This document shows, in pieces, positions 52,865 through 55,500 of a stretch of 64,000 nt of DNA (within the stretch, counting starts at the first letter, position 1; each line of letters begins with the position of its first letter). The stretch is from positions 53,491 through 117,490 of the forward strand of contig JBNLDQ010000003.1 in NCBI GenBank assembly GCA_050304475.1. The letters are read 5' to 3'. A program made the position numbers and the translations under genes. The stretch is from Turneriellaceae bacterium. GTDB lineage: Bacteria; Spirochaetota; Leptospiria; Turneriellales; JAOUFE01. The notes beneath the pieces were generated by a model. That model saw only the letters and a program-made list of their open reading frames with translations, was not told where the DNA came from and did not search any database.

Positions 52865-52950
52865 GTCGGGGGGAAGCGCAGGCTCATTTGGGAGACCCAA
52901 ATAGCCGAAGCGAGGGGGCAGGCTTGCCCCCTTCTCCTTCGTTAAGCGCT
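52865..52950 (+). repeat. Double-hairpin intergenic element, copy B
   Basis: Left motif GTCGGGGGGAAGCG, hairpin ATTTGGG-AGA-CCCAAAT (52886-52902), core AGCGAGGGGGCAGGCTTGCCCCCT (52909-52932), right motif CCTTCGTTAAGCG. Confidence 0.8.
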
Positions 52951-53044
52951 GAAAAGCCGCTGTTCCAATCAATTCTCTCATTAATAATGATGACTTTTGT
53001 ATTGTTTTCATGTTTATTTTTTTATTAATTATATTTTATATACA

Positions 53045-53072
53045 TTGACAATTTTATAATAATAATTAATAT
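53045..53072 (+). promoter_or_regulatory. Putative sigma70-type promoter of the nSMase-like gene
   Basis: TTGACA (53045-53050), 16-nt AT-rich spacer, TAATAT (53067-53072). SD AGGGGG lies 4 nt before ATG 53091. Confidence 0.5.
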
Positions 53073-53090
53073 CGGTCTTCAGGGGGCAAT

Positions 53091-55400
53091 ATGATAAATA
53101 AAATTTTTACCCGTTGCGTTCTTTTCTCTCTTGTTTTCATTAGTTCAGCTTGTACCAAGACAACTTCCCGGTCGTTTTCTTCGGGCGATAATGAGACTTT
53201 TGTGCAAATGAAAATACAAACGGCCGTGGCGGGCGCCCTGACGGCAAACAAGGTCTCGCTTTCAAACAAAACAGGCGGTTTAGACGCGGCGATCCAGCCC
53301 GGTTCTTCGGGAACAATCAGGGCAATTCAGCTCGATGTTTTACGTACAGAGGTGCATCATGAGTTGCTTGGCTGGTTCTCTCTGCAAAATGAAAGAAGAT
53401 CATTTGACCTATTGAAATTAACTGAAAATGTAAATGAAATCTTGGGCGGACAGGCCATCACGCCGGGCCACTATACTCAGGTGCGATTGATTTTGGGAAA
53501 CCTCAACACCGTCAGTGTGGAAAACAATGGAACGGTATCCATATACCCCCTGAATATTCCTTCCGGCCAGACAACCGGCATTAAATTAAACCATCAATTT
53601 ACGGTAGAAAGCTACAAACATCTGCAGATTTATCTTGATTTTGATATCAGTACGTTACGTTTTATTGCAGGTCAGAACGGATATGAATTGCGGCCGACAA
53701 TTGCCATTGACTCGGTTCGAGAGTTTGACGCCGTTTCGGCGATTGGCCCGGAAGGCGGCAGCATGACAATTCTTGACGGCAATTTCACCTTGGTGATACC
53801 TCCCGGAGCTTTGCCGGATACCCGCTGGATCACAATCTCCGGAATTCCCGACCCTCTGGCGCCGGTTTCAGGACAGTCGATTACCCGGATTACCGGGGCG
53901 TACGATTTAAACGTGCAATACGGCGAACAGTTCCTGAAACCGGTCACCATGATCTTTCGCGACAGTAAAATCCGCAGCATGACGGCGGAAGAGAAGTCCG
54001 GCTTGAACGTCTATTATTTTAACCCGCAAAGCGGCTTATGGGATATCATTCAGAGCGCCCCCGGCGATACGCCCGATGAGTGGAAAGGAACGGTAAGCCA
54101 TTTTTCCATATTCAGTCTTTTCAATCTGCTGGGGATAAAGTCGCCTTATTATCCGATTGATGCAATTCCGACGGGCAATTTACCGAGTCCGATTTTTATT
54201 AATAAGACCATGAACCTGGCGTTGACAAAAGATATCAAAGTGCTTTCTCAAAATATCTGGGGACTGCCCGATTATCTCAGGATAGGGCATGATAAGAAAA
54301 CGATACACCCGGGGGTGGTTACCTGGTCAAATTATATGGGCCAATGGATAGGCTGTTATTCCGGGTGGAACACCTTTGATTTTATCGGAGTTCAGGAAGA
54401 CTGGTTTTACCATGGCTACTTTTTGGAAGGTTTGTTATCGTGCCTGAAACCGGTGACTACTTCATTGGTTATGCCTCATGCGATGGATTTCGATTTTATT
54501 GATCCGGCCGGTCTCTTTGGTATTAACGAATTTGAGCTGATTATTCTGGCGTCTATTATGACGGGGGATTTCAATGTAGGCGATTTTGCAGAAAATCTGG
54601 CCTACACATTGGTGTCAGATGTAGGTATTTCCAGGCTGGGCGACATGGTTCCCACCATTACCGGGTGCCTTTTTCTTCTGGAACCGAGCGCTGTTATCTC
54701 TTGTGTATTGCCCATTTTAATCTCGGAAATTGTAATTACTCTTCCCAAGCTTGCCAATTTTCTTTCCGACGGTTTGCTGACAATTAACGGCACTCCGCTG
54801 ACCTGGGTGAAAACGATTTCCGTGCATATTCCATGGACGAGTGACAACGGATTTTTATCCTGCGAATATGACGAGATCGCTCAAAAAGGATTTATTCATG
54901 AGCGTTATTCGGCAAATCTAGGCGGTAAATGGCGTTCCATTGACATCTATAATATTCATATGGATGCAGGCGATTGTTCAGGAGATACCACCGCCAGAAG
55001 TTCGCAAACCACTCAGTTGATTGCGTATGTAAAGGCGTTATCTTTGAATAATGGAATTCCGTTTATCATCATGGGCGACTTTAATATGAACAGCGGCAAG
55101 GAGCCCGGTACGCTAAACAGGTTCTATACCGAATTGTCGGCAATTGACACAGCCCCATCGTTTTCTTCCGCATACTCTGCGAATATAATAGCGGGATCTC
55201 CTGGTATGACGCCGGTATTCGCAGGACACCATGATCACATAATGATCAGCACCACCGGAGATATGGTAAATCACTTTAACTTTTTAAGTATCCTGGATTA
55301 TGCGCATTTTGAATTTGAAGATGGTTCCATATATCACCCCAGCGATCATGGGCCGGTGGCTGCGCAGTTGAAACTCCAATACCTGCCGGCGGGCCCTTGA
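53091..55400 (+). CDS. Lipoprotein with DUF4382-like N-terminal domain, Ig/ZU5-like middle domain and C-terminal EEP (neutral-sphingomyelinase-like) domain
   Basis: Lipobox FISSAC. DUF4382-like pattern (LDVLRTEV...GHYTQVRLIL...IPSGQTTGIKL...LDFDIS). EEP motifs VLSQNIWGLP, GVQEDW, SDGLLTING, IIMGDFN and PSDHGPV. Confidence 0.75.
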   Translation: MINKIFTRCVLFSLVFISSACTKTTSRSFSSGDNETFVQMKIQTAVAGALTANKVSLSNKTGGLDAAIQPGSSGTIRAIQLDVLRTEVHHELLGWFSLQNERRSFDLLKLTENVNEILGGQAITPGHYTQVRLILGNLNTVSVENNGTVSIYPLNIPSGQTTGIKLNHQFTVESYKHLQIYLDFDISTLRFIAGQNGYELRPTIAIDSVREFDAVSAIGPEGGSMTILDGNFTLVIPPGALPDTRWITISGIPDPLAPVSGQSITRITGAYDLNVQYGEQFLKPVTMIFRDSKIRSMTAEEKSGLNVYYFNPQSGLWDIIQSAPGDTPDEWKGTVSHFSIFSLFNLLGIKSPYYPIDAIPTGNLPSPIFINKTMNLALTKDIKVLSQNIWGLPDYLRIGHDKKTIHPGVVTWSNYMGQWIGCYSGWNTFDFIGVQEDWFYHGYFLEGLLSCLKPVTTSLVMPHAMDFDFIDPAGLFGINEFELIILASIMTGDFNVGDFAENLAYTLVSDVGISRLGDMVPTITGCLFLLEPSAVISCVLPILISEIVITLPKLANFLSDGLLTINGTPLTWVKTISVHIPWTSDNGFLSCEYDEIAQKGFIHERYSANLGGKWRSIDIYNIHMDAGDCSGDTTARSSQTTQLIAYVKALSLNNGIPFIIMGDFNMNSGKEPGTLNRFYTELSAIDTAPSFSSAYSANIIAGSPGMTPVFAGHHDHIMISTTGDMVNHFNFLSILDYAHFEFEDGSIYHPSDHGPVAAQLKLQYLPAGP

Positions 55401-55421
55401 CGGCGGGCAAAAACAAATAAC

Positions 55422-55500
55422 GTTCGGGGGTAGCGAAAACCGCCGCAGGCGGTTGCAGCGAGGGGGCAGGCTTGCCCCCTTCCCCCTTTCGTAAGGCGTT
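55422..55500 (+). repeat. Double-hairpin intergenic element, copy C
   Basis: Left motif GTTCGGGGGTAGCG, hairpin AACCGCC-GCA-GGCGGTT (55438-55454), core AGCGAGGGGGCAGGCTTGCCCCCT (55457-55480), right motif CCTTTCGTAAGGCG. Confidence 0.8.

Follow-up and report, generated by a model that had tools for sequence, protein, structure and literature searches.

Spirochaetes are poorly served by the catalogues of RNA families and are said to have few canonical terminators. Among the dispersed intergenic repeats of bacteria, REP/BIME elements are G+C-rich extragenic hairpins of 3' untranslated regions (UTRs) and intercistronic gaps, i.e. single imperfect palindromes of ~35 nt with copy numbers in the hundreds, frequently arranged as inverted pairs and linked to the transposase RAYT; REP protects the upstream mRNA from 3' exonucleases and can attenuate transcription (malE-malF and related work). 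The attC sites of integrons, located where genes end, combine conserved flanks with a length-variable palindromic centre. In S. pneumoniae, BOX elements of the composition boxA-boxB(n)-boxC form stable RNA folds and can modulate neighbouring genes; SPRITE elements are small dispersed intergenic repeats with a predicted RNA that includes a terminator-like hairpin, thought to act at the RNA level (PMC3184786). The present analysis concerns a repeated intergenic element in a stretch of 64,000 nucleotides from contig JBNLDQ010000003.1 of a Turneriellaceae bacterium (the whole stretch is referred to as the window). The full unit consists of a 5' motif GT(T)CGGGGG(T)AGCG, a hairpin P2 that varies in length and sequence, the pentanucleotide AGCGA and a G+C-rich hairpin P3. 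Most likely, the copies are hairpin modules within the mRNAs of neighbouring genes and not the boundaries of a mobile cassette; by analogy, the element is best read as a dispersed RNA module comparable to REP, BOX and SPRITE that would belong to none of them.

The first-pass annotation of this DNA had named a REP-like element as one possibility, and in behaviour REP indeed comes closest: like REP, the present element consists of G+C-rich hairpins outside genes, in 3' UTRs and intercistronic gaps, and the protection exerted by REP is the mechanism that is proposed below for it. However, the present element is not a single ~35-nt palindrome, and high copy number and inverted pairs were not observed (the 64 kb contain 3 copies, which all point the same way), nor was a RAYT gene seen among the ~40 ORFs of the window. 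The likeness to attC is limited to the conserved flanks, the variable palindromic centre and the position at gene ends; in contrast to attC, there are no inverse core/core sites and no IntI, the gene enclosed by two of the copies has a promoter of its own, and G.U pairs render the structure strand-specific. A bias towards the 3' ends of genes, convergent pairs included, is common to SPRITE and the present element (PMC3184786), but the two have no sequence relation and differ in host phylum; unlike SPRITE, the present element combines a conserved G-run/AGCG motif at its 5' end with a middle hairpin that can be replaced, mostly lacks a U tract, is found also between cistrons and in 5' leaders, and its copy number appears much lower. 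With BOX it shares the modular construction from conserved ends and a variable middle, the intergenic position and the fact or possibility of being transcribed (PMC3184786). In contrast, BOX varies by the number of tandem boxB units, whereas the present element has one middle hairpin with a swapped or inserted apex, and BOX is thought to be mobilised by an insertion sequence transposase, none of which was seen here.

A family of folded intergenic repeats in uncultured spirochaetes

The core of the element (GCGAGGGGGCAGRCTTGCCCCCT, 23 nt) is present at 18750-18772 (copy A), 52910-52932 (copy B) and 55458-55480 (copy C), in all cases on the plus strand and between called open reading frames (ORFs), as had been stated in the first-pass annotation; the fold assigned to it there, an 8-bp stem with a 4-nt loop, was reproduced. 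A scan of the window at up to 3 mismatches revealed no fourth match; none was obtained in 100 dinucleotide-preserving shuffles and none is expected by chance. Two covariance models, R1 from 7 copies and R2 from all 12 copies described below, likewise returned only A, B and C above noise when run with filters off over the 64-kb window.

Copies B and C are complete. In copy B, the 5' motif GTCGGGGGGAAGCG (52865-52878; G-run plus AGCG, read directly from the sequence and conserved in all full copies) is followed by hairpin P2 (52881-52906; GGCU-C-AUUUGGG AGA CCCAAAU-AGCC), the variable module, whose 4-bp base covaries across the family, and by the AGCGA junction with P3 (52909-52932; AGGGGGCA GGCU UGCCCCCU), which was located by core scan and folding; R1 assigned 75.1 bits to this copy over 52863-52934. 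The adjoining segment (52935-52961) contains, in the minimum free energy (MFE) fold, the 3' strand of a third helix P1 (UCCUUCG, 52935-52941), pairing with the 5' G-run by means of three G.U pairs, and a weak fourth hairpin (AGCG...CGCU). In copy C, the 5' motif GTTCGGGGGTAGCG (55422-55435, from sequence and alignment), a foldable P2 (55438-55454; AACCGCC GCA GGCGGUU), the lower stem of which is identical to that of a metagenomic copy (L007:1035-1175), and the AGCGA junction with P3 (55457-55480; 69.4 bits by R1, 70.1 bits by R2) precede a segment (55482-55516, from sequence and fold) that comprises the P1 3' strand CCCCC (55482-55486; five G-C pairs) and a canonical terminator GGCGtttcatCGCC with T7 (hairpin and T7 at 55495-55516). 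All these features lie on the plus strand. The left motif previously noted as common to B and C was thus found again in both, and the right motif is real as well: it is the strand that pairs with the 5' G-run as P1. As a result of the pairing between the G-run and the C/U-run just after P3, both copies form a three-way junction, which in C is the MFE as well as the centroid structure; the P1 extension and the fourth hairpin are common to B and C only and are specific to the window genome.

Copy A (18711-18774, plus strand) is degenerate; its scores (43.1 bits by R1 and 54.9 bits by R2; 43-55 bits versus 67-75 bits for B and C) mark it as a decayed copy. P3 is intact (18753-18772) and has the tail TTTTTCTCTATT, the remnant of P2 (18729-18748) barely pairs, and the G-run, which is interrupted (GGGTGGGG), pairs with CCCCACCC upstream of it. 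A second hairpin had been described beside each core: this is perfect in B and C, but in A the covariance model places the 3' arm of the palindrome CCCCACCCATATATGGGTGGGG (18703-18724) on the degenerate G-run of the left motif and not on P2; the palindrome is, therefore, not homologous to P2. Copy A is the only copy flagged as terminator-like in the terminator scan.

Nine more copies were identified on six other contigs from a Leptospirales metagenome-assembled genome (MAG), Spirochaetia MAGs and metagenomes, which gives a total of 12 on 7 contigs (A, B and C of the window, one copy each on L001, L003, L005 and L008, two on L007, three on L015; the latter is the same sequence as L016). The first of them came from a pattern scan of species-representative genomes (the core once in the Leptospirales MAG L001 and once in the Spirochaetia MAG L003) and from a metagenome scan (L005, L007, L008). 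The covariance-model search for further copies that had been suggested in the first-pass annotation proved productive in the relatives: R1 revealed a diverged second copy on L007 that has retained the P3 stem, the loop being swapped for 36 nt. The three L015 copies were found on fetching contigs that encode homologues of the porin gene adjoining the L003 and L007 copies. Every true core match is preceded by a motif of 13-14 nt, G(T)(T)CGGGGG(T)AGCG, and between this motif and AGCGA stands a hairpin of 16 to ~70 nt without sequence relation between the copies; the elements range from 55 to 140 nt. A core match in L002 (Thermotogota) was rejected as a chance match within a longer terminator hairpin after a tRNA, and no copy of the core was present in the viral collection. 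The three repeats noted in the window are genuine: they are members of a small family of folded intergenic elements shared by several uncultured spirochaete genomes. This family is absent from Rfam: the whole window gave no match to Rfam 15 at gathering thresholds, and E-value scans of copy B, L006 and L008 returned only chance matches to miRNA/sRNA families far below threshold. ARAGORN found neither tRNA nor tmRNA in the window, and a string search of the literature for core and left motif yielded nothing but unrelated primer matches.

The proposal that the structure is under selection is borne out by the recurrence of the conserved and the variable hairpin, with compensatory changes, in the nine copies outside the window. 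In the alignment of the 12 copies, 96% of the pair cells are standard pairs, and compensatory changes on both sides were observed in 5 of the 14 modelled pairs, a number reached in only 5 of 500 column shuffles; in controls with slid partners, pairing falls to 43-58%. The base of P2 alternates between GGCU/AGCC, GACU/AGUC and AACC/GGUU, and on L015 the P3 stem has C-G replaced by G-C in two copies and shows the reverse exchange in the third. Although P2 varies in length, its inner part forms a good hairpin in all full copies; P3 (7-9 bp, nearly all G-C) is found in 12 of 12 copies. RNAalifold recovered P3 only from the model alignment because the columns of P2 are not alignable. At the base of P2, UAGCG stands opposite AGCGA (U-A, A.G, G-C, C-G, G.A); in L015 copy 3, U-A stands in place of G.A, and Watson-Crick and G.U pairs close the internal loop. 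In 10 of 12 copies the fold of the plus strand is the more stable one, since its G.U pairs would turn into A.C in the complement; the structure is therefore strand-specific. The two G-runs of the element can compete for the single C-run, which is paired in both folds; the MFE structures of L007 copy 2 and L015 copy 3 show the alternative, in which the 3' C-run pairs with the 5' G-run.

Of the terminator family that had also been considered, the G+C-rich hairpin P3 stands, but a U tract after it (at least 5 U in 8 nt) is restricted to 1 of 12 copies, namely A, and in L015 copies 1 and 2 an A-rich stretch with a Shine-Dalgarno sequence comes after P3. On L001 (3125-3150, minus strand), a stand-alone P3-like hairpin CGAGGGGCAGGCTTGCCCCTTTTAATAAAAAG is located directly after the stop codon of a lipoprotein gene; it has the loop of P3, one G-C pair fewer, and a U tail.

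Placement relative to genes and turnover between genomes

The orientation of the copies, a point marked for checking in the first-pass annotation, is not random: 11 of 12 run in the direction of the upstream gene (binomial p=0.003). Six copies are situated 3-54 nt after a stop codon (B at 53-54 nt, C at 21-22 nt, as previously given; L005, L007 copy 2, L015 copies 2 and 3), with L007 copy 2 and L015 copy 2 starting at, or 3 nt past, the stop codon; the downstream gene is convergent in L005, L008 and L007 copy 2. Three copies (L003, L007 copy 1, L015 copy 1) belong to the 5' leaders of porin orthologues, where they lie between a conserved TGnTATAAA box and the ATG, at 15-31 nt from the latter. 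L015 copy 2 takes up an 87-nt gap, stretching from the stop codon of the porin gene to within 19 nt of the following ATG, and must, therefore, be co-transcribed; indeed, the three L015 copies punctuate three consecutive genes, each of which is followed or preceded by a copy. The gene downstream of copy B is 159 nt away, behind its own promoter.

Directly upstream of the copies, no sigma-70-like site reached 9 of 12 matches (the best found by hand, at L015 copy 1, has 8 of 12) and no consistent -35 element was seen; a hexamer of the type TAnAAT precedes the G-run by 2-4 nt in ~8 of 11 full copies. A promoter of the extracytoplasmic function type (GGAAC...CGTC), examined by eye, was rejected since its spacing is inconsistent. 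Beyond copy C, a 10-bp perfect inverted repeat GGTTTACGGC/GCCGTAAACC with a 22-nt loop (window 55517-55558) ends one base before the ATG (55560) of a gene for a lipoprotein of 282 aa, the ribosome-binding region of which it could occlude.

The presence of the element varies between orthologous sites. The porin leaders of L003 and L007 are ~80% identical and differ by a clean indel of 51 nt within P2. A palindrome GTCCAGAATGATCATTCTGGAC and the TGnTATAAA box are conserved upstream of the porin gene in three genomes (L018:1-70 versus L007:4280-4440). In L018 (porin 77% identical to that of L007) these two are retained, but the orthologous leader lacks the element together with its flanks, and ~10 nt separate the box from the ATG. 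This indel is not a precise excision; the L018 porin mRNA could be leaderless. The intercistronic site of L015 copy 2 is occupied in L003 (3008-3080) by an unrelated perfect 16-bp palindrome TTTCATAGCCACGGGTTTAAACCCGTGGCTATGAAA. The latter, located between the porin gene and the next gene, is accompanied by a partial tandem duplicate and gave a weak match to psRNA14 in the Rfam E-value scan.

Copies of one genome share signatures (GGUUGU before AGCGA in 3 of 3 L015 copies; six C's in both L007 copies), and the apex of the long P2 (GGGAACGGTCGCGAYCGTTCCC) recurs in three copies. This apex corresponds to a palindrome of 20-28 nt, (GCA)GGGAACGGTCGCGACCGTTCCC(TGC), which is also present on its own, outside any element, in three IMG/VR viral contigs (L020:3250-3285, L021:9733-9768, L022:4960-4979) and may be an independent palindromic insert. 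A Logan contig assembled independently from the same organism breaks off within copy B, at GCCGAAGCGAGG (L004:1, equal to window 52904); such a break is assembler behaviour at a repeated k-mer and hints at more copies outside the window.

Proposed role in mRNAs and competing explanations

With a probability of roughly 0.45, the element is interpreted as an mRNA end-defining, stabilising module with a probable protein-binding junction. Accordant with this interpretation, the dispersed copies would act at the RNA level as part of neighbouring transcripts: a long helix P2, with UAGCG/AGCGA at its base (two G-C pairs, purine-purine flanks) and a freely replaceable apex, would be directly adjoined by the very stable P3, and the 5' G-run would be either free, or paired with the C/U-run after P3 (B and C), or displace the inner G-run from the shared C-run. 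Placed just past stop codons, between cistrons or at the start of a 5' UTR, the module would define and protect mRNA ends as exonuclease barrier or processing point; termination would be left to copies A and C, which have a U tract and an added terminator, respectively. The junction, conserved in sequence, is probably a protein-binding site. The family would spread, or be homogenised, within genomes, and individual sites would be dispensable. In favour of this interpretation are the recurrence of the family, its covarying structure, the better fold of the plus strand, the orientation bias, the intercistronic placement and the presence or absence at orthologous sites.

Several points weigh against this interpretation. 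The covariation stems from few independent lineages and comprises essentially two types of P2 base; the conserved 13-nt 5' motif and the P3 loop (NNCU-U) would be unneeded for a simple stabiliser; the copy number is low, with no further copy in the 64-kb window or in ~130 kb of related contigs; and we infer transcription of the copies from their position alone. Furthermore, the L001 copy is antisense to both annotated neighbours. On its own strand, L001 contains a 23-codon ORF (1351-1422; MNNTEVVYIVRKRKNHSAKKRRG) that ends in the UAG of the 5' motif and, upstream of it, a promoter-like site TTGCCA-16-TAGATT (1251-1278), by which this antisense copy might be rescued. A more far-reaching version is doubtful, according to which the element represents a new functional class of structured RNA, restricted to a clade of uncultured spirochaetes, that would serve as protein-recognised or even self-processing punctuation in surface-protein gene clusters, setting their cistrons apart and stabilising them to different degrees, with the duplicated G-runs as a conformational switch and P2 as a tolerated insertion platform. 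The competing explanations each account for some of the observations, but particular copies speak against every one of them.

It is unlikely that the copies are independent small RNA genes with promoters of their own, starting in the G-run, ending at P3 (in C at the next terminator) and acting in trans. The TAnAAT-type hexamer, the antisense position on L001, the canonical terminator of copy C and the convergent downstream genes of L005, L008 and L007 copy 2 would conform to such genes; however, no copy has, directly upstream, a sigma-70-like site of sufficient match or a consistent -35 element, L007 copy 2 and L015 copy 2 begin virtually at a stop codon, P3 mostly lacks a U tract, and a bias towards the orientation of the upstream gene is not expected for free-standing genes.

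A mobile repeat of REP- or MITE-like (miniature inverted-repeat transposable element) nature, the hairpins of which would matter in single-stranded DNA during transposition, RNA structure being a by-product, is similarly improbable. It would explain the signatures common to the copies of one genome, their presence or absence at orthologous sites, the P2 apex as a separate palindromic module that stands alone in three viral contigs and the end of the Logan contig within copy B, as expected at a repeated k-mer; in addition, the REP hallmark tetranucleotide GTAG is embedded in GGGGGTAGCG. In contrast, the G.U pairs point to a strand-specific structure, terminal inverted repeats are not evident (the sole complementarity of the ends is that of G-run and C-run), no target duplication is evident, though the exact ends of the element are undefined, and neither transposase nor RAYT nor reverse transcriptase was found among the ~40 ORFs of the window, which otherwise are ordinary chromosomal genes. 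The copy number is low also in the two whole MAGs, which contain a single exact core each (this count is from the exact-core pattern scan, which diverged copies would escape), and the L018 indel is not a precise excision.

Still less probable is a cis-regulatory leader, i.e. a riboswitch-like or protein-dependent attenuator in which two G-runs vie for one C-run and thereby control read-through into, or translation of, the downstream gene. The location in the 5' leaders of the porin orthologues of three genomes, past the TGnTATAAA box, the alternative MFE folds of L007 copy 2 and L015 copy 3, and the combination of conserved junction nucleotides with one length-variable stem, as known from many riboswitches, would be in line with it. 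However, the 5' UTR position is limited to these three orthologues and no consistent family of downstream genes exists; the downstream gene is convergent in three copies, and that of copy B is separated by 159 nt and has its own promoter; several copies lie inside one gene cluster; and the L018 orthologue does without the element. Moreover, the C-run is paired in both alternative folds and, therefore, neither of them would relieve a terminator.

Other candidates were rejected. A leader peptide could be drawn from GAGGGGG, a spacing of 5 nt and UUG CCC CCU (M-P-P), with the frame open for ~30 codons in A, B and C; on L015, UUG is changed to UUC (copies 1 and 3) or replaced (copy 2), i.e. the pairing is kept and the start codon is not, and the frames comprise only 8-10 codons in L007 and L001. 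Resemblances to a retron msr (UAGC with branching G; no reverse transcriptase gene among the window ORFs, no Rfam match), to hammerhead or hepatitis delta virus-like ribozymes (no Rfam match) and, for the 5' motif, to tRNA positions 1-12 (no ARAGORN match) were dismissed.

The enclosed gene, the cassette question and the meaning of the family

Very improbable is the explanation by look-alike ordinary Rho-independent terminators or integron-type cassette boundaries: it is favoured by the terminator scan result for copy A, the position of copies after stop codons, the P3-like hairpin with U tail that ends a gene in L001, the orphan gene flanked by B and C and a tyrosine recombinase 1.5 kb from A, but a motif conserved 30-110 nt upstream of P3 belongs to no terminator, the U tract is confined to one copy, an RYYYAAC...GTTRRRY pair is absent, the recombinase reaches 141 versus 265 bits, the enclosed gene is normal in G+C and preceded by a promoter of its own, and housekeeping genes separate A from B and C.

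The gene between copies B and C (53091-55400, plus strand) encodes, according to Pfam and its translation, a lipoprotein with DUF4382 and a C-terminal EEP-type domain (GDFN...SDHGP); the latter is below the Pfam threshold (22 bits), with the motifs GDFN and SDHGP visible. The protein is an orphan: no close homologue was found among 5.8e9 proteins and no sequence match in the PDB. A sigma-70-like promoter TTGACA-16-TAATAT (53045-53072, plus strand; 10 of 12 matches) precedes the gene, which is therefore not a promoterless cassette, and the G+C content of the interval between B and C is ordinary. The nearest relatives of a flanking radical-SAM gene are only 60% identical and not syntenic. On L015, the same bracketing is seen because successive genes each carry a copy.

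The first-pass annotation had further raised the possibility of a cassette or recombination boundary; this is not supported. The attC-type pair RYYYAAC/GTTRRRY is missing, with GTTAAGC to the right of B only, no left inverse core, and neither of the two at C. The only tyrosine recombinase of the window (20278-21144; Phage_integrase and SAM_4, Xer-like), 1.5 kb downstream of copy A beside a PocR-GGDEF gene, is 32 kb distant from B and C; it scores 141 bits against a cut-off of 265 for the integron integrase TIGR02249, remains under all NCBIfam cut-offs, and is about equal for XerA, XerC, XerD and integron integrase.

Elsewhere in the window, a gene of seven tandem RCC1-type repeats (16453-17565; units of 111-138 nt with 61-84% DNA identity) and, on the minus strand, a DUF4215 gene with cysteine-rich repeats (35874-37541; direct DNA repeats of ~100 nt at 37045-37377) were observed.

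For the annotation of such genomes, the locus is a caution: two flanking copies of a repeat are poor evidence for a mobile cassette. The repeated element also explains the assembly breaks at its copies, and would add a family to annotation of the Rfam type. As a covarying element of 55-140 nt that marks gene ends and gaps beside genes for lipoproteins, porins and giant surface proteins, it would offer a handle on how spirochaetes define the ends of their mRNAs and set relative expression within gene clusters.

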